A stretch of 50,782 bases of DNA from positions 1 through 50,782 of the forward strand of contig JBBQCF010000002.1 in assembly GCA_038318455.1 (NCBI GenBank), given 5' to 3'. The translations under genes and the position numbers were made by a program. This stretch comes from Candidatus Moraniibacteriota bacterium. Lineage in GTDB: Bacteria; Patescibacteriota; Minisyncoccia; Moranbacterales; GWC2-37-73. Of this stretch, positions 11,046 to 50,782 are shown in pieces; the first letter of the stretch is position 1, and each line of letters begins with the position of its first letter. Under the pieces are notes generated by a model. The model saw only the letters and a program-made list of their open reading frames with translations. It was not told where the DNA came from and made no database searches.

Positions 11046-11239
11046 AAGATCGAATAAGTATGGTATGCATAATTTATGTTAAAATGCTAATTTTTTATTA
11101 CTTTGAATTTGTGCTATACTTTTAATATTGAAAAATAATCTTGAAAATGAAGTAGCTTCATTAACTGAAGCATAATTTAAAAATTAACTCGAGAGTTTAA
11201 AATAGTTGCAAAATAAATAATTTAAAATAAAAAACAAAA

Positions 11240-11962
11240 ATGAAAACAAAACTAAAATCCATCGGCTATGTTTTCGGAGTAGTAATTAGTGCAATCGCAC
11301 TTGGAACATTTCTTCAATTTGCCAAAGCTTGGACTGAACCAACAGCAACTCCACCAACTCAAAATATCGGAGCACCAATCAATACTGGAATTATTGGACA
11401 GGGAAAGGCTGGTAATTTTAGTGCAACAGGAATTGTAGCTTCAACATTGTTGGTTACAGGAGATGCTAATATTTCAGGAGCTGGTAACGGGATTGTTTTC
11501 GCTGATGGAACGAAGCAAATAACTGCCACACAAGCAAATAATTCAGTTTCTACGGCTGGGGATAATCTTGGAGATCACACTGCAACGAAGGATTTAGATA
11601 TGGGGGGAAAAGCTATTGATAATGTATCTGACATTACACTTTTTTTCAATGGTATACCTGTTACGTTAAAACCTGCCTATGCTAACCTAGGTGAAGATAC
11701 TTATACTACGACAAGTTTTTATGCTGGTAATTATAATACTAATGTTTCAGGTTCAGCTTATAATTCAAGCGATACGTGTAGTGGTGATGGTACGAATAAA
11801 TATTTTTGTGTAGTTAATGTTAATAAGGATTGTATAGATTACTATGCTACTGTACATTCAATGTCATTAGGTAGCTATGGAACACAACTTATTAGCAATG
11901 TTCAATCGCAGCATGTTATTTGCAAGAAGGCTGTGTCGGCAGTATTTACTGGGCTTGAATAA
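11240..11962 (+). CDS. Secreted surface protein, hypothetical
   Basis: Signal peptide ending AKA/WTEPTATPP. Gly/Thr/Asn-rich beta-type sequence with a Cys-containing C-terminal half. Confidence 0.7.
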   Translation: MKTKLKSIGYVFGVVISAIALGTFLQFAKAWTEPTATPPTQNIGAPINTGIIGQGKAGNFSATGIVASTLLVTGDANISGAGNGIVFADGTKQITATQANNSVSTAGDNLGDHTATKDLDMGGKAIDNVSDITLFFNGIPVTLKPAYANLGEDTYTTTSFYAGNYNTNVSGSAYNSSDTCSGDGTNKYFCVVNVNKDCIDYYATVHSMSLGSYGTQLISNVQSQHVICKKAVSAVFTGLE

Positions 11963-11994
11963 TTTTGTATGTATTTTTCTTAAAAATAAAAAGC

Positions 11995-12588
11995 ATGAAT
12001 TGGAAAAAGATGTTTATTATATTGATTATATCTGCCATTGTTATCCTTGTCTTTTTGGCGAGTTCCTTTATTATTGTTAAAAATAAATCTAAAAATCCTC
12101 AAAATGTGCAAATTAATCAAAAAATTGATGTCCCAGACGATTTTAAAAAGGAGCAACTTGATGCTATCAAGGCAAATGCTGAAATTAGGAAGGTTATTGG
12201 CTTTATTGAAAAAATTTCTAATAGCACATTTATCATAAGACTCTATCCTATCCAGCAGGGTATTTTTAGTGCAAATGGCTTAGTGCTTGCACATATTACC
12301 CCCCAAACAAAATTCTATAATTTAATTCAAGTAAATACTATTAAGGCTGATCAGAAAGATGTAAATATTGGCCAAGACTCATCATTAAATCAGATAAATA
12401 ATGAACATGTGGGAAACGTTGTCAATATTGAAAACCCAGAACCTTCTGATGGAAAAGTTGAAATAAAAATTGATGACATCAAAGAGGGTCAATATATTTC
12501 TGCGATTTCAAGTTATGATATATCTGGAAATAATGAATTTTTTGCAACAGATATAAACCTTGAGTTTAGTCAAAATGCCGGTCAATAA
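11995..12588 (+). CDS. Membrane-anchored hypothetical protein
   Basis: ATG at 11995 (MNWKKMFIILIISAIVILVFLASSFII) is preferred over the TTG at 11965. Confidence 0.6.
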   Translation: MNWKKMFIILIISAIVILVFLASSFIIVKNKSKNPQNVQINQKIDVPDDFKKEQLDAIKANAEIRKVIGFIEKISNSTFIIRLYPIQQGIFSANGLVLAHITPQTKFYNLIQVNTIKADQKDVNIGQDSSLNQINNEHVGNVVNIENPEPSDGKVEIKIDDIKEGQYISAISSYDISGNNEFFATDINLEFSQNAGQ

Positions 12589-12986: not shown

Positions 12987-13034
12987 TAAACAAATTTAAA
13001 AGCCCTCACGAATGAGGACCTTTAAAAAAATTTG

Positions 13035-13106
13035 TAGCGCCAAGGAGAATCGGACTCCTGTTACCAGGATGAGAACCTGGTGTCCTAGCCACTAGACGAT
13101 GGCGCC
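13035..13106 (-). tRNA. tRNA-Glu (anticodon CUC), no encoded CCA
   Basis: The cloverleaf folds by hand as GGCGCCA-TC-GTCT-AGTGGCTA-GGAC-A-CCAGG-TTCTCAT-CCTGG-TAAC-AGGAG-TCCGATT-CTCCT-TGGCGCT-A. The D-arm closely matches E. coli tRNA-Glu. The T-loop is unusual, with C at position 55. Confidence 0.85.
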
Positions 13107-22283: not shown

Positions 22284-23303
22284 ATGAAAATTAGAAGAAA
22301 AATTACTATTTTAATATTTGGAATAATTATTCTTGCTGGTGGTTTTTTTTATTTATATAGTGAAATATATTTTTCAAAAGGAATTACTAATAGTAAGAAT
22401 ACTATCTCCATTGAAAGTGGGGATAACGCTTTGATAGTGGGCGAGAAACTAGCTAAGGCTGAAGTTATTAATGGAAAATATTCGTTTGTGATTTATCTGT
22501 GGATTACTCATAAATTGCACTCTATTGTGGCGGGTGTGTATGAATTTCCAGCAGGCATGCAAATCCCAGAGGCTGCAAATATAGTCATTGGTGGTCAGGT
22601 TGTGCCAATGAGAGTGAAGATAACATTTCCAGAAGGTTTTACCATAAAAGATATGGCAGCAAAACTTATAGCTAATGATCTTGCGGGTGATTCATTTGCA
22701 AAATTAGCTAATAAGCCAACTGTTGATATTAAGAGTCCATATCCATTTCTGAATGAATTGCCAGCAAATGCAACTTTGGAAGGATATTTATTTCCTGATA
22801 CTTATTATTTTGCTAAAGATGTGACTGCCAATGAAATTGTTAAAAAAATGTTGGACACTTTTTCTCTCAAGGTTATGGTAGCAATAAAATCTGATTTGGA
22901 ATTGCAAAAGAAATCATTATTTGAAATTATAACAATGGCTAGCATCGTTGAGGGGGAAGTTAAAAATGCTGATGATAGAAAGATAGTGGCGGGCTTATTT
23001 TGGAATAGACTTGAAAATGAAATGCCACTTCAAAGTGATGCCACTTTGGAATATGCTCTTGGTGATAAAAAAATACAACATTCAATAGCGGAGACAAAGA
23101 TTGATTCGCCATATAATTCATATCAAAATAAGGGCCTTCCGCCGGGACCAGTTTCGAATCCAGGACTTGCTTCTATTTTAGCCACACTCAATCCGACACC
23201 AACTAATTTTGTATATTTCTTGACTGATCCAAAAACTGGCAAAACAGTCTTTTCAAAAAACTTTGAAGAACATGTCGCTAATAAGGCGAAATATGGACTC
23301 TGA
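22284..23303 (+). CDS. mltG: Endolytic murein transglycosylase MltG (YceG-like)
   Basis: N-terminal TM, LASIVEGE, YNSYQNKGLPPGPVSNPG motifs. Confidence 0.9.
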   Translation: MKIRRKITILIFGIIILAGGFFYLYSEIYFSKGITNSKNTISIESGDNALIVGEKLAKAEVINGKYSFVIYLWITHKLHSIVAGVYEFPAGMQIPEAANIVIGGQVVPMRVKITFPEGFTIKDMAAKLIANDLAGDSFAKLANKPTVDIKSPYPFLNELPANATLEGYLFPDTYYFAKDVTANEIVKKMLDTFSLKVMVAIKSDLELQKKSLFEIITMASIVEGEVKNADDRKIVAGLFWNRLENEMPLQSDATLEYALGDKKIQHSIAETKIDSPYNSYQNKGLPPGPVSNPGLASILATLNPTPTNFVYFLTDPKTGKTVFSKNFEEHVANKAKYGL

Positions 23304-28110: not shown

Positions 28111-28589
28111 AATTTATCAAAGTAATTAGGCAATCGCTGTTTTCGCAAGAAAATAGAGGAAAGTCCGGACGTTTCCCATGAAAGTGGGAGCATGGTAGCG
28201 GGTAACCCCCGTCAGAAGTGATTCTCGAGGTGCGAGCAGAGACGCCTGAACGTGAAAACAATCAGGCACCCTGATTTATTAGGGTGAATTTCTATGGCAA
28301 CATAGAAGGTGAAACGGCTAAATCCTTACCTGGACGCAAGACCGTGCTCCAGTGCGTGGCACTGGAAATTTCAAAAATCAAATTACAAATTCCAAACAAT
28401 TTTCAAATAGAAAATAAATCAAGAGTATTTCTTTGTTTGGTGCTTGTTTCTTGTGATTTGTATTTTCCAATGCTGTGCATTGGTAGAGTGTCGCTTGACT
28501 CCGACGGTAACGTCGGAGCTAGATAAATGATTGTCATCAATTTGAAAAAATTGACACAGAATCCGGCTTATAGATTACTTTGATAAATT
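28111..28589 (+). ncRNA. rnpB: RNase P RNA (bacterial type A-like) with a large AT-rich insertion
   Basis: P4 signature AGAGGAAAGTCCGGAC (28155-28170) and ACAGAATCCGGCTTAT (28556-28571). P1 pairs 28111-28126 with 28574-28589. GGTGAAACGG and AGATAAATGATTGTC elements are also present. Confidence 0.9.
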
Positions 28590-37451: not shown

Positions 37452-37521
37452 CAAAAGCAAAATTTTTATATATTGGAATTTGTTTGTAATTTGGTATTTA
37501 TAATTTGTGATTTTTACATTT

Positions 37522-38835
37522 ATGGCAAAAACAAAAAAATGGTTAATGTGGATTGTAATAGTTGTTGCAATAATCGGCAGTGTGTTTTTTTATTTTAAAA
37601 GTAAAAAGCCCGTAACAACTTACACCACTGCTGATGTCAGCAAGGGAACTTTAGCGCAAACTGTCAGCGTGACTGGAGATTTGGTGGCAAAAGATGAAAT
37701 CACACTTAATTTTGAAATTGGTGGAAGAGTTAGTAAGGTTTTTGTAAAACCAAGTGATAAAGTTGCGGCTGGTGACAAGATCGCAATCTTGACTGATAGT
37801 ATTTTGCAAAAACAGGCAGAACAAGCCAAGGCAAATCTGGATCAATCAATTGCTAATGCTGGTTCTAGCAGTGACACATTGCGTGAAGTCAAAGTCGCAT
37901 TGGATAATGCTGAAAACACACTTGATGATACTGAAAATCTTAATGATCAAAATATTTCTGCAGCCAAAAAAGCGGTTGACAATGCCAATAATTATTATGA
38001 CGATACCAAGGCTTATTATGATTCGTTGACTGTCGATGGAAAATTAGCAGCTAAACCATCCTTAACGATGGCGGAAAATAGTTTGAATTCAGCTAAGGAG
38101 GCTCTTAAGACAATCAATCAGCAAGCTGATCTTAGTAAAACTAATGCTGAAAACAATATTAGTAGTGCCAAGGCTAAAGTAAAAACAGTTGAATCTAATT
38201 ATGCAAAAAGTTCTCGCAATGCAATAGTGGCAGGAGCGCGAGCTGCTTATGATATGGCTAATTTGAATTTAGCTAAAGCTGTGTTGGTCTCACCAGTTAA
38301 TGGAACAATCACTGAAGTGAACAATAAGGCAGGTGAAATTCTCGGAACTGGAGTTATTAAAGAAGCATTTTCACGTGTGATGAGCTTGGATATGATTATT
38401 GAATCAAAAGTTCCTGAATCTGATATCGTGAAAGTGAAGCTTGGTCAACATGCTAATATTAGCTTTGATGCTTTGAGTCCGGATGATATTTTTGATGGAG
38501 AAATAATTGAAATTGATCCAGCTTCAACGAATATTCAGGACGTTGTTTATTATAATATCAAACTTAAATTGAACACTCTTGATGTTCGCATTAAGCCAGG
38601 TATGAGTTCTAGTATTGATATTAAAACTGCAGAAAAAAATGATGTGTTTAGCATTCCAGCGCGAGCAATTAAGACTGAAGAAAATAAGAAATTCGTGGAT
38701 GTCTTGGATTCGGTAACTAATACGACCAAGAAAGTTTATATCACAACAGGGTTAGATGGAGATGATGGAATGGTGGAAGTTTTGTCGGGACTTACTGGCA
38801 GCGAAAAAGTGGTAACATTTATGGCAACCAAATAA
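37522..38835 (+). CDS. HlyD/MacA-family periplasmic adaptor (membrane fusion protein)
   Basis: N-terminal TM, lipoyl-like GDLVAKDEITLNFEIGGRV, long coiled coil, beta-barrel region. Lies upstream of the MacB-type ABC genes. Confidence 0.85.
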   Translation: MAKTKKWLMWIVIVVAIIGSVFFYFKSKKPVTTYTTADVSKGTLAQTVSVTGDLVAKDEITLNFEIGGRVSKVFVKPSDKVAAGDKIAILTDSILQKQAEQAKANLDQSIANAGSSSDTLREVKVALDNAENTLDDTENLNDQNISAAKKAVDNANNYYDDTKAYYDSLTVDGKLAAKPSLTMAENSLNSAKEALKTINQQADLSKTNAENNISSAKAKVKTVESNYAKSSRNAIVAGARAAYDMANLNLAKAVLVSPVNGTITEVNNKAGEILGTGVIKEAFSRVMSLDMIIESKVPESDIVKVKLGQHANISFDALSPDDIFDGEIIEIDPASTNIQDVVYYNIKLKLNTLDVRIKPGMSSSIDIKTAEKNDVFSIPARAIKTEENKKFVDVLDSVTNTTKKVYITTGLDGDDGMVEVLSGLTGSEKVVTFMATK

Positions 38836-39220: not shown

Positions 39221-39952
39221 ATGTCAACACGACTAATCGAAGTTAAAAATCTTGAAAAAACTTATGAAAACGAAGGTGTTAAAACACCTGTTCTTCATAG
39301 TTTGAATTTTACAATGGAAAAAGGTGAGTTTGTTTCAATCATGGGGCCGTCGGGATCTGGAAAATCAACTTTGATGCAGATTTTGGGCATGCTTGATCGT
39401 CCAACTGGAGGAGAATATATTTTTGAAGGAAAAAATATCAACGATTATTCAGATGATGAATTGGCCAAACTTCGCAATAAAAAAATTGGTTTTGTTTTTC
39501 AATCATTTAATTTGTTGCCAAGAACTTCGGTGTATGAAAACACTGAACTTCCGCTTTTGTATGATGAAGATCATTTGGAAATTGGAAATAAAGAGAAAAT
39601 CAACAAAGCCTTGGCGGCAGTTGGCATGGAGCATCGCACGAATTATCTCTCCAATCAACTTTCTGGTGGAGAAAAACAACGCGTGGCAATTGCTAGAGCG
39701 TTGGTGAACGACCCAGGTGTTATTTTCGCTGATGAGCCTACTGGAAATCTTGATTCAAAATCAGGACTTGCTGTGATGAAAATTTTGCAAAGACTTAATG
39801 ATGAAGGACATACTGTTATTTTGGTGACACATGAAACTTATACTGCTCAACATGCCAAAAGAATTTTGCAGGTTAAAGATGGGAATATTGTTTCTGATGA
39901 ATTGGTTGCAAATAGGTTGATTGCAAAGGGTGAGGGGGAATTACTAAAGTAA
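39221..39952 (+). CDS. ABC transporter ATP-binding protein (MacB/LolD-type)
   Basis: Walker A GPSGSGKST, signature LSGGEKQRVAIARAL, Walker B IFADEPTGNLD. Confidence 0.92.
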   Translation: MSTRLIEVKNLEKTYENEGVKTPVLHSLNFTMEKGEFVSIMGPSGSGKSTLMQILGMLDRPTGGEYIFEGKNINDYSDDELAKLRNKKIGFVFQSFNLLPRTSVYENTELPLLYDEDHLEIGNKEKINKALAAVGMEHRTNYLSNQLSGGEKQRVAIARALVNDPGVIFADEPTGNLDSKSGLAVMKILQRLNDEGHTVILVTHETYTAQHAKRILQVKDGNIVSDELVANRLIAKGEGELLK

Positions 39953-40088: not shown

Positions 40089-41327
40089 ATGAAATTAAGT
40101 GCTCCACTTAAAATTTCTTATAACAATATTATGGCGGCGAAGTTCCGTTCTTTTTTGACGGTGCTTGGAATTATTATTGGAATTGCTTCGGTGATTATTG
40201 TGATGGCAATCGGAGCTAGTGCGCAGCAACTAATTTTAGATCAAGTTTCTGGCATTGGATCGAATTTGGTGGGAGTTTTGCCTGGAGCATCCGATGAAAA
40301 AGGTCCGCCAGCTTCAGTTTTTGGTATTGTGACGACCACCCTAAAGATTAATGATTTGGATGCTATTTTGCAAAAGAAGAATGTTCCAAGCGCGGTTGCT
40401 GCTTGCGGATATGTCACTGGGGCGGGCACAATAAAATATCGGGAAAATTCAGTGCAAGGAAGTTATCAGGGCGTGTCCGCATCATTTCCGGATGTTGAAA
40501 AAGTCCAAGTAAAAACTGGAAGATTTTTTACTAATGAAGAGGATATGGGGCTTGCTAGAGTCGCAGTACTTGGTGCCAAGAGGGCGCAGGATCTTTTCAA
40601 TGGAAGTGATTCAATCGGAAAAGTTTTTACAATCAAGGATACAAATTTTACCGTGATTGGAGTACTTGATATCAGGGGTAGTGCACTTTCTTCTTCTGAT
40701 GACACGGTGTATGTGCCAGTTCAGACAGCACAAAAATTGATGCTCGGAATTGATTATTTGAATTTTGCACGCATTAAAGTTGATTCGGTCGATGACATGC
40801 CTCGAGCCGTTGCTGATATTAGAATGACTTTGCGAGTGCAGCATAAAATTAAAAATGCAACAGATGATGATTTTTCAGTGCGCGATACTGCGCAAGCATT
40901 AGCAATTATTACAAATATTACTAATATCCTCAAATATTTCTTGGTAGGCATTGCAGGAATTTCTTTGGTGGTTGGTGGCATTGGAATCATGAATATCATG
41001 CTTATTTCTGTGCAACAACGTATTCGTGAAGTTGGCCTTAGAAAAGCAGTTGGTGCGCGCAATCGGCACATCATTACGCAATTTTTGATGGAATCTGTTT
41101 TCTTAACATTGGTCGGCGGTGTGATTGGGATAATTATTGGAATTTCGATATCTTTTCTGGCTGCGGTGATTATAAATTATTTGGGATATACTTGGCAATT
41201 TATAATTTCCATAAGTTCAATTGTGGTGGCAACGACAGTGGCAGCAGCAATCGGAATTATTTTTGGACTGTATCCAGCCCGCAAAGCTTCGCGTATCTCA
41301 CCAATGGAGGCATTAAGATATGAATAA
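40089..41327 (+). CDS. ABC transporter permease, MacB/FtsX-like
   Basis: N-terminal TM, large extracytoplasmic MacB_PCD-like domain and C-terminal FtsX 3-TM bundle (GGIGIMNIMLISVQQRIREVGLRKAVGA). Confidence 0.88.
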   Translation: MKLSAPLKISYNNIMAAKFRSFLTVLGIIIGIASVIIVMAIGASAQQLILDQVSGIGSNLVGVLPGASDEKGPPASVFGIVTTTLKINDLDAILQKKNVPSAVAACGYVTGAGTIKYRENSVQGSYQGVSASFPDVEKVQVKTGRFFTNEEDMGLARVAVLGAKRAQDLFNGSDSIGKVFTIKDTNFTVIGVLDIRGSALSSSDDTVYVPVQTAQKLMLGIDYLNFARIKVDSVDDMPRAVADIRMTLRVQHKIKNATDDDFSVRDTAQALAIITNITNILKYFLVGIAGISLVVGGIGIMNIMLISVQQRIREVGLRKAVGARNRHIITQFLMESVFLTLVGGVIGIIIGISISFLAAVIINYLGYTWQFIISISSIVVATTVAAAIGIIFGLYPARKASRISPMEALRYE

Positions 41328-41474
41328 ATATAAATAAATTACAAATGACAAATTGCAAATACCAAGCAAATTTCAAAAAACAAAAAAAACTTTTCAAATT
41401 GTTTGCATATTTGAATTTTGTAGATTGTAATTTGTTTGGAATTTATTTATTGTAATTTGTTTATTTACTTTAAA
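41328..41474 (+). repeat. AT-rich long imperfect hairpin, family 2
   Basis: Left half is AAATTACAAATGACAAATTGCAAATACC and right half is GTAATTTGTTTGGAATTTATTTATTGTAATTTG. It fills the gap between the two permease genes. Confidence 0.45.
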
Positions 41475-42731
41475 ATGTTTAGACAATTTTTAAATTCAAT
41501 CAGATTTGCCGTCAAAAACCTTCGCAATAATGTGGGAAGAACTGTTTTGACTTTGGTTGGAATTGTGGTTGGCATTATGGCAGTCATTGTGGTTTCTTCG
41601 AGCGGACAAGGTGTGAAAAATTATATTCTCGGACAATTTGATTCTTATGGCTCCGACTTGATTCAAATCGAACCAAAAATTCCTTCAACTGGAAAAACTT
41701 CTGCTGCAAACGCTACAGGACAAGCACAGGGAATTTCCATCACCACGCTTAAAATTTCTGATGCTAAGGCACTTAAAAAAATTCCTAATGTCCAGGATTA
41801 TGCGGCAGGAACAATTGCTCAAGAAGTTTTCTCACATGGCTCCAATAATAAGAGAGTGATGATATATGCTACGGGGGCGAATTGGCCGCTTGTTGATAAG
41901 GCCACCAAAATTGCAGAGGGTTCTTTTTATTCCGAGACAGAGGATAATAATTTGGAGCAAGTTGTCGTTATCGGCATTGATTTGAAAGACGAATTATTTG
42001 GCAGTGATGAGGCTATTGGAAAATCAGTGAAAATAAAAGGAGCAGATTATCGAGTGATTGGCGTGCTGGCAAGGAGAGGCTCAATGAGCTTTATGAACTA
42101 TGACGAGCTGGCATATATTCCAGTGCAAACAGTGCAGAAAAAAATTCTAGGCATAGATTATTTGAAATTCATTTCAGTTTTGGTTAAAGATGTGAATTTG
42201 ATTGATGTGACAGTGGCTGATATTAATGACACCATGAGGAGACTACATAAGACCTATAAAGCTGATCAAGAGGATTACTCTATCAGCACAATGCAAGAAG
42301 CTCAAAAAACTATTGACGATGTTTTTGGTACTATTAATATTTTGCTTTTAGCTTTAACCTCGATTTCTTTGTTGGTTGGCGGAGTGGGAATTATGAATGT
42401 GATGTATGTGGCAGTGGTGGAGAGAACTTTTGAGATTGGACTTCGAAAATCCGTGGGTGCGACAAGTTCTGATATTCGCAATCAATTCTTGCTTGAAGCT
42501 GTTATTATAACTTTAATTGGTGGTGCGGTTGGAATATTTTTAGGCTTTTTGATTGCACTTGGCTTTTCTTATGCACTTTCCTTGCTTGGTTTTTCACTTC
42601 AATTTTCTGTAACTTTTAGTTCCATTGCTTTGGCTACGGGTTTTTCAATGGCAACAGGAATAATTTTTGGATATTATCCAGCCTGGAAAGCTTCCAAACT
42701 TTCTCCGATGGAGGCACTTAGGAAAGAATAA
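41475..42731 (+). CDS. ABC transporter permease, MacB/FtsX-like (second paralog)
   Basis: Same architecture as 40089-41327 (GGVGIMNVMYVAVVERTFEIGLRKSVGA). The ATG at 41475 is preferred over the TTG at 41436, which lies inside the hairpin repeat. Confidence 0.88.
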   Translation: MFRQFLNSIRFAVKNLRNNVGRTVLTLVGIVVGIMAVIVVSSSGQGVKNYILGQFDSYGSDLIQIEPKIPSTGKTSAANATGQAQGISITTLKISDAKALKKIPNVQDYAAGTIAQEVFSHGSNNKRVMIYATGANWPLVDKATKIAEGSFYSETEDNNLEQVVVIGIDLKDELFGSDEAIGKSVKIKGADYRVIGVLARRGSMSFMNYDELAYIPVQTVQKKILGIDYLKFISVLVKDVNLIDVTVADINDTMRRLHKTYKADQEDYSISTMQEAQKTIDDVFGTINILLLALTSISLLVGGVGIMNVMYVAVVERTFEIGLRKSVGATSSDIRNQFLLEAVIITLIGGAVGIFLGFLIALGFSYALSLLGFSLQFSVTFSSIALATGFSMATGIIFGYYPAWKASKLSPMEALRKE

Positions 42732-42732
42732 A

Positions 42733-44481
42733 ATGAAAAGAAATATAAAAATATTTTTAAATTTCATTCTCATTAATTTTTTAATGTCAGTGAGTTTTTT
42801 TGATATACAAAATGTTTTGGCCGCCCCAATAGTAGCTGATGTTAATGGTGATTTAATTTCGAATCAAAGCGTGACAATTTCAGGATCTTCTTTCGGCACT
42901 AAAATTTCTAATCAAGCTTCACCAATTCGTTTTGAAACCTGGGGGATTGGCAATGAAGGCAAGACAGCACAAGAGGCAAGTGGTGGTTGGTGGACTGACG
43001 GCAGAAATACTGTATTTCCAAGAATTGTTAATACTAATAAACGGATAAGCTCAAGAGATGTTATAGATACAAGCATGTATCCAAGTGGATCATCAACTTC
43101 GGTGGATAGTATTTCAAGAATGTTTTATAAAAATGTAGCTGGGTTTGATGTGACCGGAAAGATGCTGTTAAATTTTTGGTTTTATACTGATATTTCAAAT
43201 AATATTTTAAATGATAATATAAATACGCAGCTTAAATTTTTATATTTTGCAACTGATGTTGTCGCTGATTGGCCTTGGGGTAATCCGCAATTTACAATGC
43301 CATTTAGAGCGATGAGTCTTTGGGAAAATAGTATTCCAGATATTTCAAATTCAACCATGGTTACATATGATTCATCAACGCTTGGATCCAACGGGGTTAG
43401 AAATGATTTGAATAACACTGCTAATCTTATTAAAGCTGAAGGTTGGTATAATTTGCAAATAGAATTGAAGCAAGGTGAATATGGTGTGGAAGGTGGCAGC
43501 GAAAAAATTTCAATCGTTGGTCCAAATTATACAAAATATGGCACTTCTTCGGTGGCAGGAAATCCTGCCTATGTTGTTTATCCAGAATGGCAGTCTGGTG
43601 TGGCTAGTCCGACTGTGGTTTGGTATCAAGGAAAAAGGTATATGGGCAAAAGCGTTGGCATTGTTTCAACAATTTCGCCAGATAATGATAGTGCAAATTG
43701 GCATGAAGTTTATGCTTCTGATAAATTAAACTCTGTTATTTTTTGGCTTTGGTCACAAAAAAGAGGAAATAATGATTGGAATTATAGTAATCAGACATTG
43801 ATAGGCGAGAATGAGGTTATGTATGATAAATTGTATTATGAAGTAGTGCAAAGTGGAGCAACAGACTTTACTGCTAAAGGAGCTGCTAGTAATGATCCAG
43901 GAACTGTTTTTAAAAATATTCAATGGACCAGGCTTGGAGCGGGGGATCAAGTAAGGATTGTTGATGAATATAAAACTGGTTCCAAAGTTGATTATAATGG
44001 GGAGGCATATCAATGTATTTCCGACATTGTTTCTCTAGCAACTCCAGCTATTGACTCTACTCATTGGTCTAAAGTTTTTTCTTATCGATGGCCAAGTAGC
44101 ACAACTAAGATGTTTTTAGATGGTATTTATATGGATAATTCATTTGCCAGAATTGAAATAGGCGATAATTCAGTTTATGCTAATTGTACTCATCGCGAAA
44201 TTCAAGTCGCAACTTCTTGGAGTGATGGTCAAATTGATTTTGCCTTCAATCAGGGGTCATTGCCTAACGGACAAGCATATCTCTTTGTGATAGATGAGAA
44301 TGGCGTGCCAAGTGCTGGGCACCCTATAATAATTGGTGAGGTGAAAAATTATTCAATCTCAAATTTCACAACTCTTGTTTCCAATTGGTTTCATCTTGGA
44401 AGTGGAAATGTCAGTGATTTTAATTTTGATAACATTGCAAACACAAAAGATTTGGGGATTATGATGAGTAAATGGCAGTAA
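42733..44481 (+). CDS. Secreted protein with CBM5/12-like carbohydrate-binding motifs and a C-terminal dockerin-like tail
   Basis: Signal peptide MKRNIKIFLNFILINFLMSVSFFDIQNVLA/AP. W..G..Y..G..V.Y.G..Y-type motifs (EWQSGVASPTVVWYQGKRY; YKTGSKVDYNGEAYQC...HWSKV). Tail SDFNFDNIANTKDLGIMMSKWQ. The ATG lies 1 nt after the permease stop. Confidence 0.85.
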   Translation: MKRNIKIFLNFILINFLMSVSFFDIQNVLAAPIVADVNGDLISNQSVTISGSSFGTKISNQASPIRFETWGIGNEGKTAQEASGGWWTDGRNTVFPRIVNTNKRISSRDVIDTSMYPSGSSTSVDSISRMFYKNVAGFDVTGKMLLNFWFYTDISNNILNDNINTQLKFLYFATDVVADWPWGNPQFTMPFRAMSLWENSIPDISNSTMVTYDSSTLGSNGVRNDLNNTANLIKAEGWYNLQIELKQGEYGVEGGSEKISIVGPNYTKYGTSSVAGNPAYVVYPEWQSGVASPTVVWYQGKRYMGKSVGIVSTISPDNDSANWHEVYASDKLNSVIFWLWSQKRGNNDWNYSNQTLIGENEVMYDKLYYEVVQSGATDFTAKGAASNDPGTVFKNIQWTRLGAGDQVRIVDEYKTGSKVDYNGEAYQCISDIVSLATPAIDSTHWSKVFSYRWPSSTTKMFLDGIYMDNSFARIEIGDNSVYANCTHREIQVATSWSDGQIDFAFNQGSLPNGQAYLFVIDENGVPSAGHPIIIGEVKNYSISNFTTLVSNWFHLGSGNVSDFNFDNIANTKDLGIMMSKWQ

Positions 44482-44674
44482 AAGTTTATAAAGTTTCAAG
44501 TTTATCAAGTTTTTAAAGTAAAATTCAGAAATGCAAAAATAAAAAAAGAAGAAATTCAAAAAAGAATGATATAATGAATACATGGAAATAGGACAAAAGA
44601 AAAAGAAAAAAGTTTATCTAAAATTGTTATTTAACTTATTTTTAATAAGCTGATTTTTTAATATACAAAGTGTT

Positions 44675-45817
44675 TTGGCAGCGCCAAGTGTAAGCGATGT
44701 TGGTGGGACAATTCTCGATGGTCAACAGATTAATATTTCCGGTATTGGATTTAAGATAAAATCTCCAGTGGCCCCTCTCTTATGGGATAATTTTGAAGAT
44801 GGCAGCGATGGGTCAAGGTTATCAACAAAGGAAAGATGGGTAAGCTTATATGGTGGTACTGGTGGTTATTACAATAGTGTTGATAAATATAGTGGGAATT
44901 TAGCGGCATATCAAACTTATGTTAACCCTTATCCTATGGGAGAAGTAACTAATAACTTCTTTTTCCCCACGGAGCAGATGGAGGTTTATTATTCGTATGT
45001 AACAAAATATGTAGGGAGTGTAGGAGATGGAGTGTTCAAAAACGGCAGAATCTGCGCCAATGCCGGATCAAACCCACCTTATAACGGCCCTGGCAACGCA
45101 AGCTGGAGTATGAATTCGGTCGGATATAGCACTGGCGGAGGCCTTGATGGAGTAGAGCATAGCCCAGACCCTAATGGGTCTGTTACATACGATAATAATG
45201 GTTTGGGTTTAAGAGATGGAAATTGGCACAGATTAGAGTTGTATAAAAAAATGAGTACTCCCGGTGTTGCAGATGGTATCTTTTGGGGAAATATTGATAG
45301 TGATGATGGATTTGCTAAATATGCTAATTCACGATCTCGTACTAATTATGCTGTCATGACGAGAGGTGTGGATGAAACTTACTTACATTATGGTATTCTC
45401 TTGGGCTTAATGCACACAAGCGGCACCGGCACTTCAAAAATCTGGGTTGACGATGTTTATGTTGACAATACTCAAGCGCGAATTGAATTATGCTCTGGTA
45501 GTATTTGGAGTACGCGTACTCATTGTGAACCACAGATACCAAAAATAACTTGGAATGATAGCAATATTTCTGCGACAGTAAATCAGGGAACTATTTCCAA
45601 CGGTACGGCATATTTATACGTGGTTGATAAGGATGGAAATGTTAATGCCAGTGGGTATGCTATTACAATTGGATCACCATCAACTTATACAATCTCAAAT
45701 TTCACAACCCTTGTTTCCAGTTGGTTTCATCTTGGAAGTGGAAATGTCAGTGATTTTAATTTTGATAATGTTGTGAACACTAAAGACTTGGGAGTAATGA
45801 TGAGTAAGTGGGAATAA
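44675..45817 (+). CDS. Paralogous secreted-type protein with a dockerin-like tail; the N-terminal signal peptide is interrupted by an in-frame TGA (possible pseudogene)
   Basis: The ORF track starts at the TTG at 44675. The upstream in-frame ATG at 44582 encodes MEIGQKKKKKVYLKLLFNLFLIS-TGA-FFNIQSVLAAPS, homologous to the signal peptide of 42733-44481. The tail is SDFNFDNVVNTKDLGVMMSKWE. Confidence 0.7.
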   Translation: MAAPSVSDVGGTILDGQQINISGIGFKIKSPVAPLLWDNFEDGSDGSRLSTKERWVSLYGGTGGYYNSVDKYSGNLAAYQTYVNPYPMGEVTNNFFFPTEQMEVYYSYVTKYVGSVGDGVFKNGRICANAGSNPPYNGPGNASWSMNSVGYSTGGGLDGVEHSPDPNGSVTYDNNGLGLRDGNWHRLELYKKMSTPGVADGIFWGNIDSDDGFAKYANSRSRTNYAVMTRGVDETYLHYGILLGLMHTSGTGTSKIWVDDVYVDNTQARIELCSGSIWSTRTHCEPQIPKITWNDSNISATVNQGTISNGTAYLYVVDKDGNVNASGYAITIGSPSTYTISNFTTLVSSWFHLGSGNVSDFNFDNVVNTKDLGVMMSKWE

Positions 45818-45878
45818 AAGTTTATCAAGTTTCAAGTTTATCAAGTTTTTAAAGTAAAATTCGTGCTATAATATAGGT

Positions 45879-48800
45879 ATGCGAAAAGAAAAAAATATAA
45901 AGTTGGCGCTACTCATCCTTTTTATCGTGGGTAATTTTTTTCTTGGTAATATTTCTCATGCTGCACCTGAAGTTGCAGACAACGGTGTCGATGAAGACGG
46001 GGATGGATGGCTTGGGACAACTGGAGGCTATCAAATAAGAGCTAGTCATCCTAGGGTTTTACTTGATTCAACTCAACTTGCAACAGTGATTGATCGGATG
46101 TATGGCGCTAATGCTATTGAACCATACAAGCATTGGTTTGATTTAATTAAAAACAAAGAAGATGTTTCTCATAATGTTGATCTGACAAATCTTGCGCTTA
46201 TTTATAAGGCAACTGGGCAGCAAGTTTATAAAGACAGATTTATTGCCTCGATTCCTATTTCGGGTGTGCCTAATAGCACAGAGCTTTTCGGTGTGGATAT
46301 AATGTTTGATGAGTTGGATGATACTGTAAAAAATAATATCATTCAAAGAGTTAATGCTGGGGGTGCTAGTGTTTGGTATTATAATTCCGTCAATCAATCC
46401 AATAATTCAGCCTTAGCTTCTTGGGGGTATTATAGTCTAATAGGAATTTATCCAGCACTTGCATATGCTGGACTTTTTGCATTTTCCGGATTGGAATCAG
46501 CATCAACTTTTAATGTTAATAATTATTTTGCCAGTGCAAAAAAAGAGCTTTACCCTGGTGGTAATTTCTATGACATAGAAAGAAGAGTTGGCGGCGATCC
46601 AGCTAATAATAACGCGCTGCCGGGAAGTTTTGGTGGAATGTATGATAATGCCGAAGATTCATTCGGTATAAACATGTTTTTGGAATATAAAAATTTGACT
46701 GGCGAAGACGTCTCACAAAGTTTTTTGCGCGACAAATATCGCGGTGATTTTTATCAAAATATGCAATATCCATATTTGTATACTTATGCTGCTAGTAATT
46801 CATATTGTACTAGAGCTGGAACTGAATCGCACAAATTGGCAAACATTTGGAACACGCAAACGGATTATGCTACTCAACCAGAGGTTAATACAATAAATCA
46901 ATTAGCATCGATATATCAAGATAAAAAATCTCAATACTTTGCCAATAATGGTGTGAATCGCGAACTTTGCGCGCACGAATTTGATGGAATGTTTTTAGAT
47001 TTGATTTTCTATGATAAAAATTTAGCCGAAGAAGCTCCATCGACAAATCCAACTTCAAAATATTACAGTGGCCCAGGACTTGTTTCGATGCGCAGTGATT
47101 GGACAAATAATGCTTTTTTCAGTGTTCTGATTGCTGGTGAAGGAATTAGCAGGCGCTATGAAGATGGTAATTCATTTTTGTTGGGTAAAAAAGATCATGT
47201 GATTGTTCAGGCAGGTGCTCGTATTAGATTTAATCTTGATAATGGAAAAGAACATTGGTATGCAATCCGCAGCGCTTCAAAAAATACCATGAAAATTTTT
47301 GATCCACTGGAAAGTTTTGATATTAATGCTAATGGCACAACTGGTGCATTACACAGTGGTCCACAATTAGTTGCTTCTGACAATTTGGGTGGTCAAATTT
47401 TTGAAACAAATCCATCAAACACTAATGAATGTTATTATGCTCCGGACAGTAGCACTGAATCTTGCGCCGCATCATATAATCGTAATTCTGCTTCAGCATT
47501 TCCGTTGGGACTTTATGAAACTGCCAATGTCACCAAATATGAACACAATCCAATATATGGCTATACATATTCCGTTGGAGATGCTACAGCTGCTTATACT
47601 AAAAAAATTGATTTTTTTGAGCGTGAATTTTTGTATCTGCGTCCTGATGTTTTGATTGTTTTTGATCGAGTAAAATCTGTTGACCCAAATTTTAAAAAAG
47701 TTTGGACAATTCATACAGTTGATCAGCCAGTCGTACAAGGAAGTTCAGTGGCAAGTGGGTTAGGGATGAAAACATTTGTAAACAACACATCATCAATCAT
47801 TTACAATCCAAACAACACAACCTATATTGATTCTCTCTTGCCGAAACAAAACAAAATTGTTGTTCGAGGTGGCGATACTGCTTTGGTAAAAGAAAAGCCT
47901 TTAAATTCTGGACAAGGAATTGCAAGTCAAGATATTGAAATTTCAAATACTGACATCCCACGTTGGTTGGAATTTCTTGGAGCTGGAAGTGATGGCACTG
48001 GGAGCCTGACAATCAATGGTACAACTAAAGAGGGTGTCACTAATGAAGTTATTAATTTTGCGGGAAAGATTCAAACCGAGGCTGATACGCGTCCAACCAG
48101 CATGACCAGTACCACAGTTACTGATAGCGCCAAAAAATGGACAGTTGATCAATGGAAAAATTATGGTATCAGGACTAAATGTGGTGCAAATGTTTATGAT
48201 TCAATTATTACTTCAAATACGGAAAATACAATAACGGCGCCATTGTTTCCAAATACATCTTGTTACGCTTATCAGGTTTATAGATATGTCGGCAATTCAT
48301 ATAATCATTGGACAAAAATTGACAGCATCGCGACAAGTGATTTGGATTTTGATTATCTGACTGTTTCTATTCCGCATTATTTTGACACTGTGGGTGTGAA
48401 TCCTGACGGAAGTGAGCAACTTTATACTTTTGCTCCGCATACTGACATGAAAGACGATTCATATTCAAAAAGAAAAGATCTTGGACAATGGACTTTTGAA
48501 CAAGAAGCCACAACTCCACAATTGCTGGATAATTTTCTAAATGTAATGTCGCTCAAAGATCCAGGAACTCCAAATAGTGATAATAGATTGTTTGAAGGGG
48601 TCGGTTTTTCCGGTGTGGTGGTTGATGATCAATTTGCAATTTTTGCCAATGATAAAAACAATCTGACTTCTGTGACTGCAACAATTCCGAAGGATGGGAA
48701 TTTAAATGGTCTCATTTTTGATCTCATTCCGAATACTGATTATTATTACAAAATTCAAGATAACTCTTTTTCTTTAGTAAATACTAATAATGGAGGGAAT

Positions 48801-48992
48801 GTTATAACTAGTTCCAGTATGGGAGTTGCAAAAGTTGCGATAAACGTTTCATCTTCCAGTTTAACTTATTCCATTTTGGACTTCACTAACATGCTTCCTG
48901 ACTGGCTACGTAAAACATCATCTGCTGATTTAAATTTTGACAATATTGTAAACACAAAAGACCTGGGGATTATGATGTCAAAATGGAATTAG
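45879..48992 (+). CDS. Large secreted protein, possibly polysaccharide-lyase/heparinase II/III-like (weak), with a dockerin-like tail
   Basis: Signal peptide ...GNISHA/AP. The ASHPRVLLDS start and YEDGNSFLLGKKDHVIVQAG segment are reminiscent of alginate lyase/heparinase II-III families. The tail is ADLNFDNIVNTKDLGIMMSKWN. Confidence 0.8.
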   Translation: MRKEKNIKLALLILFIVGNFFLGNISHAAPEVADNGVDEDGDGWLGTTGGYQIRASHPRVLLDSTQLATVIDRMYGANAIEPYKHWFDLIKNKEDVSHNVDLTNLALIYKATGQQVYKDRFIASIPISGVPNSTELFGVDIMFDELDDTVKNNIIQRVNAGGASVWYYNSVNQSNNSALASWGYYSLIGIYPALAYAGLFAFSGLESASTFNVNNYFASAKKELYPGGNFYDIERRVGGDPANNNALPGSFGGMYDNAEDSFGINMFLEYKNLTGEDVSQSFLRDKYRGDFYQNMQYPYLYTYAASNSYCTRAGTESHKLANIWNTQTDYATQPEVNTINQLASIYQDKKSQYFANNGVNRELCAHEFDGMFLDLIFYDKNLAEEAPSTNPTSKYYSGPGLVSMRSDWTNNAFFSVLIAGEGISRRYEDGNSFLLGKKDHVIVQAGARIRFNLDNGKEHWYAIRSASKNTMKIFDPLESFDINANGTTGALHSGPQLVASDNLGGQIFETNPSNTNECYYAPDSSTESCAASYNRNSASAFPLGLYETANVTKYEHNPIYGYTYSVGDATAAYTKKIDFFEREFLYLRPDVLIVFDRVKSVDPNFKKVWTIHTVDQPVVQGSSVASGLGMKTFVNNTSSIIYNPNNTTYIDSLLPKQNKIVVRGGDTALVKEKPLNSGQGIASQDIEISNTDIPRWLEFLGAGSDGTGSLTINGTTKEGVTNEVINFAGKIQTEADTRPTSMTSTTVTDSAKKWTVDQWKNYGIRTKCGANVYDSIITSNTENTITAPLFPNTSCYAYQVYRYVGNSYNHWTKIDSIATSDLDFDYLTVSIPHYFDTVGVNPDGSEQLYTFAPHTDMKDDSYSKRKDLGQWTFEQEATTPQLLDNFLNVMSLKDPGTPNSDNRLFEGVGFSGVVVDDQFAIFANDKNNLTSVTATIPKDGNLNGLIFDLIPNTDYYYKIQDNSFSLVNTNNGGNVITSSSMGVAKVAINVSSSSLTYSILDFTNMLPDWLRKTSSADLNFDNIVNTKDLGIMMSKWN

Positions 48993-49204
48993 GGAATTTT
49001 TTATTCTTGATATATTAAAAAAATGGTATTTCATTAGGAGGATGAATGAATATGAACAGGATGTGAATTTAAAACTTACTATTGTAGGTATTCATTAAAA
49101 GTGATATTATTTTAAATAGGTGGCCGTATAGTTGTAGTGTATCTTTTTGAAAATAAAAAATTGAAAATGAAAGTGTATCCGTTTTAATAATTAAAAATAC
49201 TGGT

Positions 49205-49783
49205 ATGAATTTCAGGAAAATAAAATTATCAAGAAAAACAATATTGTTCTCACTTATTGGCATAGCTGGGATAGCCTTTGTTATAAGTTTTTTTAATATT
49301 AATATTTCTTTGCCAAAATTTGAGAAAAAAGTTGTTAAGCAAGAAGTTACTAAGGATGGGAGTGTTATTTATTTTGAAAATGAAAAAAAGACTGTCTTGG
49401 TTGGTGAGAATTTTTCTATGGATGTCCATATTGATCCTGTTGGGAAAAAAATTACAGGAACAGAGGTGCATATAAATTTTGATAAGAATTATTTTCAAGT
49501 AGATGATGTTAAGTTGGATGATTCTCAAATGTCACTTGTTTTGCAAAAACCAATTATTGATAATGCTACTGGAAAAGTTTCTTTTGTTGTGGCAATTCCA
49601 GCGACTGACCCCGTTGTGCCAGTTACTGCAAAGTCGAAAATAGCGACTCTCACAATGAAGTCCTTATCATTAACAAGTGGTTCTAATATCGAATTTGCCA
49701 CATCAACATTTGCGACGGCTATTGGCGAAGTCGAGGATGTTTTGTCTAAGAGAAAGGCTGTCACGGTTAGTGTTGAAAAATGA
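49205..49783 (+). CDS. Membrane-anchored cohesin-like domain protein
   Basis: N-terminal TM ILFSLIGIAGIAFVISFF, then ENFSMDVHIDPVGKKITGTEVHINFDKNYFQV...GKVSFVVAIP...IATLTMKSL, a typical cohesin beta-sandwich pattern. Confidence 0.6.
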   Translation: MNFRKIKLSRKTILFSLIGIAGIAFVISFFNINISLPKFEKKVVKQEVTKDGSVIYFENEKKTVLVGENFSMDVHIDPVGKKITGTEVHINFDKNYFQVDDVKLDDSQMSLVLQKPIIDNATGKVSFVVAIPATDPVVPVTAKSKIATLTMKSLSLTSGSNIEFATSTFATAIGEVEDVLSKRKAVTVSVEK

Positions 49784-49801
49784 AATTTTTAAAATTTCTT
49801 C

Positions 49802-49845
49802 TGTGGATAAGTATAGTTGGAGTAAAGTCACATGAGGTGTATAAT
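49802..49845 (+). promoter_or_regulatory. Promoter preceded by a DnaA-box-like 9-mer, third occurrence
   Basis: TGTGGATAA (49802-49810); TTGGAG (49817-49822), 17-nt spacer, TATAAT (49840-49845). Confidence 0.5.
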
Positions 49846-49892
49846 AATATTAATTGGTAATTTTTCTTATAAAATAATATAAATAAAAAAAT

Positions 49893-50693
49893 ATGTTTAC
49901 AAAAAAATCTTTAAAACAAAAAAATGTTATGCATGGGATAGTGTTTTCTTTTTTTGCTATCAGCGCTTTCTTTTGTGTTAGAGCAGAAAATGCTCAAGCA
50001 GCAAATGGGACACTTTCATTAGTTCCATCTGTTTCTTCGGTGATCAGTGGAGGATCTTTTTATGTGGATGTTAATATGGATACAAATTTGAATACAGTCG
50101 TAGCGACTAGGGCAGTTATACGTTATGATAAAACAAAAGTAACTTTTGTTAATTGGAACACAGCTACTTCAATCTTTACAACAAACAACAATCTTTGCTA
50201 TGCGGCTGATGGCGGCGTGGAAAAACCAATAAATTCTCCTTGTCAGATTATAGCTAATGATACGGCAAATGGAATTGTTACGATTACAATGGCCTCAGCG
50301 CATGTTGCAGATCCTGTTGTTGATATTTCCAAATTAGTTAAAGGTTCAGGTTTATTGGTTGCTAGAGCTAATTTTACCGCAAATGTGGATATTGCATCAA
50401 ATCTTATTAATGTTATGGGTCTTCATCATGCCAACACGAGAAACGGAAATGATAGTGGAATAGTTATAGACGATAATTTGGGAACTGATATAACTGACGC
50501 TCCAGTTCAAAGAAGCACCGTTCAATACGGCGATCTTAATAGTGATCGTAGAGTCAATTTATTTGATTACAATACGCTTTTGCCAAATTATGGCAACACT
50601 ACTCCTGGAAATGTTGCTGATATAACTGCCGACAATCTTGTGAACCTGTTTGATTATAATGTTATTCTTGGTAGTTTTGGTCAAACTTTTTAA
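49893..50693 (+). CDS. Secreted cohesin-like domain protein with a complete two-repeat dockerin at the C-terminus
   Basis: Signal peptide ...AENAQA/A. Cohesin-like GTLSLVPSVSSVISGGSFYVDVNMDT...IRYDKTKVTFVNW. Dockerin repeats GDLNSDRRVNLFDYNTLL and DITADNLVNLFDYNVIL. Confidence 0.7.
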   Translation: MFTKKSLKQKNVMHGIVFSFFAISAFFCVRAENAQAANGTLSLVPSVSSVISGGSFYVDVNMDTNLNTVVATRAVIRYDKTKVTFVNWNTATSIFTTNNNLCYAADGGVEKPINSPCQIIANDTANGIVTITMASAHVADPVVDISKLVKGSGLLVARANFTANVDIASNLINVMGLHHANTRNGNDSGIVIDDNLGTDITDAPVQRSTVQYGDLNSDRRVNLFDYNTLLPNYGNTTPGNVADITADNLVNLFDYNVILGSFGQTF

Positions 50694-50735: not shown

Positions 50736-50782
50736 ATGTTTAAAAAAAGCCTAATCAAGATAAGTTCCAAAATGGTCAGTGC
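50736..50782 (+). CDS. Start of a further ORF, truncated by the window end
   Basis: The ATG at 50736 (MFKKSLIKISSKMVS...) runs off the window. It is too short to judge. Confidence 0.25.
   Translation, partial: MFKKSLIKISSKMVS

Follow-up and report, generated by a model that had tools for sequence, protein, structure and literature searches.

That cohesins and dockerins also exist outside cellulosomes, in bacteria as well as in archaea, is an old finding, and they are reportedly widespread (Peer et al., 2009, as cited in PMC10066038). Most Patescibacteria have never been cultured; they are very small, they are believed to rely on other cells, and the way in which they attach to partners or substrates is largely unexplained. 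Here we describe a stretch of 50,782 nucleotides (the window) from a Candidatus Moraniibacteriota bacterium (contig JBBQCF010000002.1, positions 1 to 50,782), in which the region at 42733-50693 is probably a non-cellulosomal cohesin-dockerin display module. It encodes three proteins with a common C-terminal tail, designated A, B and C, followed by two cohesin proteins, D and E. The identity of the modules as cohesins and dockerins is very likely, and this core of the reading is backed by homology, fold and a conserved neighborhood. The tails of A, B and C are predicted, with somewhat less assurance, to bind one of the neighboring cohesins. Among described dockerins, the group-2 dockerins of Ruminococcus flavefaciens come closest to the tail. 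They are ~40 residues long with a single Ca repeat, and the cell-anchored ScaE cohesin takes up two of them at once in a "tripartite" 2:1 mode (Duarte et al., 2025, J Biol Chem, PMC12270676).

The five open reading frames (ORFs) of the region had been listed in an earlier note on this DNA, and their coordinates and strand were borne out by a direct check. All genes from 37.5 kb on are on the + strand. The features of the region are (aa, amino acids; HMM, hidden Markov model):

42733-44481 (+), protein A, 582 aa, paralogue of B; tail HMM 7e-23
44341-44478 (+), tail of A, consisting of a degenerate repeat-1 helix, a linker and a canonical Ca-loop plus helix
44583-44674 (+), signal-peptide coding region of B, interrupted by an in-frame TGA at 44651-44653
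44675-45817 (+), protein B, 380 aa as encoded, with a one-loop dockerin tail at 45677-45814
45879-48992 (+), protein C, 1037 aa, with a one-loop dockerin tail at 48858-48989; tail HMM 2e-21
49205-49783 (+), protein D, 192 aa, with a transmembrane anchor at ~residues 12-31 and a D-type cohesin at ~51-192
49893-50693 (+), protein E, 266 aa, with a signal peptide, an E-type cohesin at ~37-212 and a two-repeat E-type dockerin at ~210-266

Comparison With Described Systems

The tails resemble the R. flavefaciens group-2 dockerins in being C-terminal elements of ~40-45 residues with a single Ca-binding repeat (one loop and ~45 residues in the window), and both kinds are found on cargo as well as on a cohesin-bearing, adaptor-like protein. 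The R. flavefaciens dockerins target proteins to a cell-surface cohesin and are functional without a second loop (PMC12270676), while for the window the same role is predicted from sequence. The order of the elements also differs. RfDoc2 consists of Ca-loop, helix, loop and helix, while the tails have a helix that is the remnant of repeat 1, then a linker, the Ca-loop and a helix, the first loop being lost. Furthermore, there are five group-2 sequences in R. flavefaciens and at least 437 clusters (50% identity) of the present tail, the host is a member of the Patescibacteria and not a rumen Firmicute, and anchoring is by an N-terminal membrane helix in place of a sortase-linked scaffoldin.

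The NagJ/NagH proteins of Clostridium perfringens (PDB 2ozn, 2jh2, and 2w1n) give the best PDB matches of D. As in the window, single cohesins are there paired with glycan-degrading enzymes outside a cellulosome, enzyme activity being a prediction in the case of the window. The C. perfringens dockerins have two loops, and the pairs join secreted toxin-like glycosidases that are not tethered to a membrane protein.

Cellulosomes, such as those built on CipA/SdbA in Clostridium thermocellum and on ScaA-ScaB in Acetivibrio cellulolyticus, share with the proposed module the dockerin-bearing cargo, the adaptor with both a cohesin and a dockerin, the anchoring cohesin and the use of what appear to be two orthogonal specificities. 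Cellulosome cohesins are among the fold matches of E, and cellulosome dockerins among the profile matches of the tail. Unlike in cellulosomes, no multi-cohesin scaffoldin, CBM3 or cellulase was detected; D and E contain one cohesin each, the anchor is a membrane helix and not SLH or sortase, and the cargo is lyase-like or lectin-like. Searches of A-E against Pfam and NCBIfam gave neither CBM3 nor any glycoside hydrolase family. The term "cellulosome-like", which the earlier note had used, is thus apt for the plug-and-socket principle only.

A dockerin-domain envelope protein, SEML1_0315, was found to be essential in a cultivated Saccharibacterium, with glycans of the host cell as its target in the authors' speculation (Wang et al., 2023, Cell, PMC10633639). 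It is like the proteins described here in being an envelope protein of Patescibacteria with a dockerin domain. It belongs to a different lineage, and neither a cohesin nor a gene-cluster architecture appears in the text of that paper (PMC10633639). In the full-text library that was searched, no paper was found to describe gene clusters of this kind, with cohesins and dockerins, for Parcubacteria or Moranbacteria, the essential protein of Saccharibacteria being mentioned in passing only. If the proposed reading is true, a membrane cohesin, an adaptor and exchangeable dockerin-tagged cargo would constitute a concrete and testable surface-display mechanism for Patescibacteria. It would extend the known picture of non-cellulosomal cohesins and dockerins, and not introduce a new principle. 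A large family of one-loop dockerins would also be of interest for minimal affinity tags and for designer cellulosomes.

The Shared Tail as a One-Loop Dockerin

The earlier note described a common C-terminal tail of ~45 residues on A, B and C, and alignment confirms this. Over 46 aligned columns the tails of A and B are 80% identical and those of A and C 57% identical, with 22 invariant positions in all three; the last 69 nt of the tail DNA are 85% (A/B) and 77% (A/C) identical. Asp or Asn at loop positions 1, 3, 5, 9, and 12 had also been pointed out, and these can be read directly from the sequence DFNFDNIANTKDL as D1, N3, D5, N9, and D12 (loop D-F-N-F-D-N-I-A-N-T-K-D-L). The single canonical repeat is, as suggested, preceded by a degenerate helix; both the sequence and hhalign show that repeat 1 keeps only the helix NFTTLVSNW. 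Type I dockerins consist of two tandem EF-hand-like repeats of ~22 residues, each with a Ca-loop (Asp or Asn at positions 1, 3, 5, 9, and 12) and a helix behind it, while the tails of A, B and C have only one loop.

An exhaustive search with the tail profile over 1.84 billion representative proteins (clusters at 50% identity) gave at least 437 proteins at E <= 1e-3, and 40 at <= 1e-10. A word-index search with the alignment of the three tails gave nothing, the number of shared 5-residue words being too small. The match is almost always found at the extreme C-terminus, in proteins from 48 to 1216 residues long. The weaker matches are ordinary two-repeat dockerins of the type DLNxDGxVNxxDLGxLLSxWG, and four proteins (P0089, P0095, P0163, and P0189) have the tail sequence with a canonical first loop kept. 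These intermediates suggest a continuum between the one-loop and the two-repeat forms. Among the 106 tail-bearing proteins that were scanned, 40 match Dockerin_1 at E <= 0.01 (best 1.2e-13) and 14 contain a cohesin; polysaccharide lyases, CBM4_9, F5/8 type C and beta-helix domains are found as other bodies on the tail-bearing relatives.

A profile made from 66 one-loop tails retrieves PDB dockerins first, CelS (1daq) at 4.5e-7 and then 2mte, 4fl4, and 6kg9, while calmodulin-type EF-hands trail at 0.005-0.07 only. Together with the Dockerin_1 matches of the relatives, this upholds the original suggestion that the tail fits a dockerin Ca-loop plus helix. When the tail was compared to canonical dockerins using hhalign, both repeats were aligned (99.4%, 2.8e-21), and the same was seen with independently collected E-type dockerins (92%, 5.8e-7). 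The motif Y-x-I-x-N/D-F-x-x-L-V-x-x-W of the tail aligns to the end of loop 1 and to helix 1. As judged from these alignments the tail is a dockerin without the D-x-N-x-D start of loop 1, in which helix 1, the linker, loop 2 and helix 3 are retained. A structure model of B likewise puts two helices into the tail, at 343-350 and 369-378, though with low confidence. The tail also behaves as a module. Of 47 proteins found using B as query, only A, B and P0014 bear the tail, and the other 44 are without it.

The Cohesins of D and E

D matches the Pfam Cohesin model (PF00963) with 32.5 bits, the cut-off being 24.1, and in PDB it comes closest to the NagJ cohesin of C. perfringens (1.3e-4). A single segment near its N-terminus is strongly hydrophobic (KD19 2.42 at residue 12); an AXA cleavage site is lacking, and the segment is therefore read as a signal anchor. 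Both parts of the earlier description of D, as cohesin-like and as membrane-anchored, thus agree with the results, and the Pfam check that had been recommended comes out positive for D as well as for the 40 tail-bearing relatives with Dockerin_1.

When the AlphaFold2 (AF2) model of E, with a predicted local distance difference test (pLDDT) score of 71, was compared to PDB, the best 43 matches were all cohesins, with TM(target) of 0.45-0.58 and a lowest E-value of 2.3e-6. Profile iterations that were begun with D and with the N-terminal domain of E converge on the same 44 proteins from the related loci and proteins, and 13 of the 22 locus members of this D/E family match Pfam Cohesin on their own. 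Judged from the convergence of the profiles, D and E are homologous, and the cohesin fold is shown by the model of E.

The C-terminus of E, GDLNSDRRVNLFDYNTLLPNYG...ADITADNLVNLFDYNVILGSFG, is a two-repeat dockerin. The repeats are DLNSDRRVNLFD and DITADNLVNLFD, the second having a Thr in position 3. The view of E as a secreted cohesin protein carrying a two-repeat dockerin therefore gains from the fold matches and from the repeats, which score below the Pfam cut-off. The same type of dockerin, below called E-type, also ends small secreted Fn3 proteins elsewhere.

Some of the related cohesin proteins contain additional domains. Cys-rich repeats follow the cohesin in the membrane-anchored E-type proteins of L001, L002, L006, L015, L029, L033, L035, and L038 (the L numbers denote loci found in the scan described below), and this repeat, CTSFxYSxWGxCQPNGTQxRTV...GCTGG, has no match in Pfam. 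An Ig-like domain ends the E-type cohesin proteins of L001, L002, L006, L015, L029, and L035, while L033 and L038 are unaligned in this part. Of the 22 cohesin family members, seven match Pfam Big_13 and five match DUF4625.

Tail and Cohesin Genes in Related Genomes

When the tail profile was run against the GTDB species-representative genomes, 41 loci were obtained, 37 of which have strong tail genes. In 14 of these 37, cohesin genes are found beside the tail genes and on the same strand, with a median gap of 117 nt and a maximum of 1955 nt, while random placement inside the same loci gives a median tail-cohesin gap of ~1330 nt. Cohesin and dockerin modules are thus encoded next to each other in the window and in these 14 related loci, and the synteny across relatives that the earlier note asked for is found. 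Tail genes often form tandem arrays. L023 mirrors the layout of the window, with two cohesin genes and four tail genes. Since tails flank cohesin genes in many relatives, the scenario that the note had put up against itself, a general sorting signal present where no cohesins are nearby, does not hold.

The tails could also have descended from dockerins as Ca-binding modules with no affinity for cohesins; their ligand might be a cell-wall polymer, a host surface or a glycan, or they might merely be stabilizing, and the cohesins nearby would serve other partners. Outside cellulosomes, dockerins for which no partner is known are reportedly common, and 23 of the 37 tail loci have no cohesin in the available flanks. 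Giant Omnitrophota ORFs with dockerins have been interpreted as adhesins (PMC10066038). The tight same-strand adjacency of tail and cohesin genes in 14 loci speaks against such a role, as do the 14 of 106 tail proteins that carry a cohesin themselves in an adaptor-like manner. In addition, binding to cohesins has been proven for the naturally occurring one-loop dockerins of R. flavefaciens (PMC12270676). We therefore find it quite improbable that the tails lack cohesin partners.

Nearly all relatives of the studied proteins come from Patescibacteria metagenome-assembled genomes (MAGs) labeled Candidatus Moraniibacteriota or Parcubacteria group. The nearest locus found is L038 from Parcubacteria group bacterium GW2011_GWD2_38_11, where the transporter proteins are 68-74% identical to those of the window. 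The MAGs of L001, L014, L015, L018, L019, L022-L025, L027, L028, L034, and L035 are labeled "uncultured Bdellovibrionales." The cohesin protein of L001 is 56-66% identical to those of L002 and L006, which are from Moraniibacteriota MAGs, and the gene order is equal; this likeness makes the label look unreliable. Nine consecutive tail genes are found in L013 (794-16741) and four in L010 (1551-7326), both without a cohesin in the available flanks. In L038 two type IV pilin-like genes with an N-terminal FTLIELLI (11174-11740 and 11784-12356) directly follow the gene for the membrane-anchored cohesin.

Proposed Pairing of Dockerins and Cohesins

The cohesins form two subtypes, E-type, including that of E in the window, and D-type, including that of D. 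In most relatives the E-type cohesin is found directly after an N-terminal membrane helix. The dockerins differ at loop positions 10-11, which are known specificity determinants (PMC12270676); the one-loop tails have T-K or T-R here, while the E-type dockerins have L-F. In eight loci (L001, L002, L006, L015, L033, L035, L037, and L038) the tail genes are accompanied by E-type cohesins only, mostly membrane-anchored, and in L042 and L043 D-type cohesins only are found with E-type dockerins. Strong E-type dockerins are encoded in four of the five loci with D-like cohesins vs. none of the 34 others (Fisher 6e-5, an optimistic value that overstates independence since the loci are phylogenetically related, and to that extent a weakness of the argument). 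Three more loci, fetched by means of the E-type dockerins P0199, P0200, and P0201, all have immediately adjacent D-type cohesins, scoring 90-167 bits against the D-type profile vs. 22-37 bits against the E-type profile. In total, E-type dockerins are accompanied by cohesin modules in seven of seven loci.

The interpretation of D and E as an anchoring scaffoldin plus an adaptor, put forward in the earlier note, is favored by this co-occurrence of subtypes. Tentatively, the co-occurrence also favors a two-tier pairing, in which the tails of A, B and C would bind the cohesin of E and the dockerin of E would bind the cohesin of D. The following mechanism can then be proposed. A and C, as well as B if its broken signal peptide is bypassed, are exported by the Sec system. 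The cohesin of D is fixed to the cytoplasmic membrane through a single helix at its N-terminus. The tails of the cargo would plug into the cohesin of E in a Ca-dependent manner, and the dockerin of E, belonging to a different recognition class, would plug into the cohesin of D, so that the cargo would be tethered to the surface in two tiers. Once tethered, the cargo would act on acidic or other polysaccharides, by binding or by cleavage, and a host cell or a biofilm matrix is a plausible source of these.

A simpler arrangement would have one tier only, with the tails of A, B and C binding the membrane cohesin D directly. E would then be a separate cargo protein or a chain extender, and its dockerin would bind E-type cohesins. 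The architecture permits this, D being the sole membrane-anchored cohesin in the window. The pairing rules are, moreover, unsettled by relatives that join an E-type cohesin and a tail in one chain (P0101 and P0184), or a D-type cohesin and an E-type dockerin (L032, L046, and L042). Such a pairing would, on the other hand, leave the eight loci with E-type cohesins only, as well as L042 and L043, without a cognate partner nearby, and many proteins join a D-type cohesin and a tail in the same chain, which is unusual for a cognate pair. Direct binding of the tails to D is therefore considered unlikely, and the two-tier pairing is retained as the working model.

The opposite tier order of the same two classes is seen in L032 (6869-12262) and L046 (4020-10031). 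These loci encode an E-type cohesin, an adaptor of ~230-290 aa composed of a D-type cohesin and a tail, and cargo with L-F dockerins; the E-type cohesin is the presumed anchor, and in L032 its N-terminal membrane helix is seen. It may be, though this is a rather speculative extension, that Parcubacteria and Moranbacteria use two orthogonal cohesin-dockerin pairs as interchangeable blocks, stacked in either tier order, in order to carry variable arrays of lyase-like or lectin-like proteins, perhaps with two one-loop dockerins on each cohesin. If true, such pairs would let ultra-small and probably host-dependent cells attach to, or feed on, the polysaccharides of their partners.

Several observations weigh against the display module as proposed here. 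The isolated tails have no match in Pfam even at E <= 10, and the dockerin assignment hence rests on family-level and profile evidence. In the model of B the tail region has a pLDDT of only ~50, and the structure models are all of single chains. The cohesin of E alone scores 12.6 bits with Pfam Cohesin, which is under the cut-off, and its dockerin scores 15.9 bits with Dockerin_1 (PF00404) in the whole protein and 20.4 bits as an isolated C-terminus, the cut-off being 22.9. The cohesin of D starts only ~20 residues past the membrane helix, and it may or may not reach past the cell wall. No cohesin is seen within the available flanks of 23 of the 37 tail loci, many of which are on short contigs. 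Finally, all four same-chain combinations of cohesin and dockerin types exist in the relatives, and the pairing rule may thus be too simple, the specificities perhaps being finer than two classes. A further point, concerning the catalytic residues of C, is given below.

The Cargo Proteins

A consists of a signal peptide, an Ig-like domain, a ConA-like jelly-roll with a CBM5/12-like insert, a second Ig-like domain and the one-loop dockerin tail. According to its AF2 model (pLDDT 83), B has the order Ig-like, ConA-like jelly-roll, Ig-like and one-loop dockerin tail. The two proteins are paralogous (phmmer 3e-19), A differing by the insertion with the CBM5/12-like repeats. The bodies of the three cargo proteins had been described as different from each other; this is right for C, which is unrelated to both of the others, and not for A and B. 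Likewise, the CBM5/12-like motifs reported for one of the three exist as repeats in A, and the match of residues 412-436 to CBM_5_12 (20.1 bits, E = 6.6e-4) is below the Pfam cut-off of 26.2 bits and suggestive only. The PDB folds nearest to the model of B are the X122 domains of Teredinibacter, the alginate lyase Aly36B of polysaccharide lyase (PL) family 36, a PL14 alginate lyase and legume lectins, all with TM(target) of ~0.5-0.6.

C consists of a signal peptide, a body with a heparinase-II/III-like polysaccharide-lyase fold and the one-loop dockerin tail. It matches the NCBIfam model HepB at 2.4e-23 with 82 bits, far under the equivalog cut-off, and heparinase II in PDB (2fuq) at 2.7e-14, the homology spanning residues ~350-625. 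The body that had been noted as possibly polysaccharide-lyase-like is thus found to be heparinase-II-like. In the phmmer alignment C has an Arg in the position of His406 of HepII, which is reported to be a catalytic residue (Shaya et al.). The N-terminal toroid of HepII, where the other catalytic residues are situated, gave no alignment with C. Glycan-binding or polysaccharide-lyase-like would be a fair description of the bodies of A, B and C, while the designation of all three as enzymes in the earlier note appears too strong.

The N-termini of A, C and E are signal-peptide-like in a hydropathy check. B as encoded starts with TTG at 44675 and is without a signal peptide. An in-frame ATG upstream of it, at 44583, would encode a good signal peptide, MEIGQKKKKKVYLKLLFNLFLIS*FFNIQSVLAAP, which is broken by the TGA at 44651-44653. 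Of the three proteins stated to be secreted, A and C therefore have the expected signal peptides, while that of B is interrupted. A nonsense mutation, a mistake in the assembly or read-through could account for this TGA. Recoding of UGA as a sense codon was considered and rejected, since none of the other long genuine ORFs in the window contains an in-frame TGA; the standard genetic code is thus likely to apply. The 36 long ORFs on the + strand end in TAA (26), TAG (8) or TGA (2), the two last being D (49781-49783) and an ORF ending at 23303.

The MacAB-Like Exporter

The genes upstream of A encode a MacB-type exporter set that is complete as judged by Pfam, with an ABC ATPase, permeases with MacB_PCD and FtsX domains, and an HlyD-type adaptor:

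37507-38835 (+), HlyD-type membrane-fusion protein; Pfam HlyD_D23 8e-09 and HlyD_3 3.9e-08; the L038 orthologue is 68% identical
39221-39952 (+), ABC ATPase of a MacB-type transporter; Pfam ABC_tran 2.8e-35
40089-41327 (+), MacB-type permease 1; Pfam MacB_PCD 1.9e-40 and FtsX 4.5e-21
41436-42731 (+), MacB-type permease 2 (MacB2); Pfam MacB_PCD 8.2e-37 and FtsX 1.4e-18

The spacing of 1 nt between MacB2 and A, from which the earlier note took its cue, was read directly at the junction. The stop codon TAA of MacB2 is at 42729-42731 and the ATG of A at 42733, with a Shine-Dalgarno-like AGGAA stretch upstream. It is possible to read this spacing as co-transcription, and not as shared function. MacAB is found directly upstream of display genes only in the window and in L038, i.e., in two of ~39 loci, and L038 is a relative with ~70% identity. 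In L018 the tail gene and a MacB gene are 7 kb apart, the interval being occupied by genes for thioredoxin-like proteins and pyruvate:ferredoxin oxidoreductase.

Given the conserved order of MacAB, tail gene and cohesin gene in L038, together with the 1-nt spacing in the window, the tail might be thought of as a C-terminal export or sorting signal for the adjacent ABC transporter. This is highly improbable, as A and C begin with ordinary signal peptides of the Sec type, the homologues of the tail are dockerins, and the immediate proximity of MacAB is limited to the window and L038, the MacB gene of L018 being 7 kb off. The inclusion of the exporter as a part of the module, as the earlier note had it, is for the same reasons of adjacency and signal peptides not supported, and any role of the MacAB-like pump in display is unlikely.

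Genomic Context

The display genes are found in what is otherwise ordinary chromosome, as indicated by the following features upstream:

7357-36831, dcw (division and cell-wall) cluster, with two penicillin-binding protein (PBP) transpeptidases, three Mur ligases including MurC, FtsW, MurG, and a Bac_transf sugar transferase
13034-13106 (-), tRNA-Glu(CUC) gene
28118-28586 (+), bacterial class A RNase P RNA gene, 137 bits

The presence of the dcw cluster implies that the organism makes peptidoglycan. The window, which makes up an entire NCBI contig, has a G+C content of ~36%. A scan for promoters and terminators gave 69 promoter-like sites, compared to 54 expected, and is uninformative in such AT-rich DNA.

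A further ORF (MFKKSLIKISSKMVS...) at 50736-50782 (+) starts 43 nt past E and runs off the end of the contig, and the display module may therefore extend beyond the window. At the other end, a 777-aa ORF at 142-2475 (+) contains a divergent InlB B-repeat (Flg_new_2) domain and may encode another surface protein.

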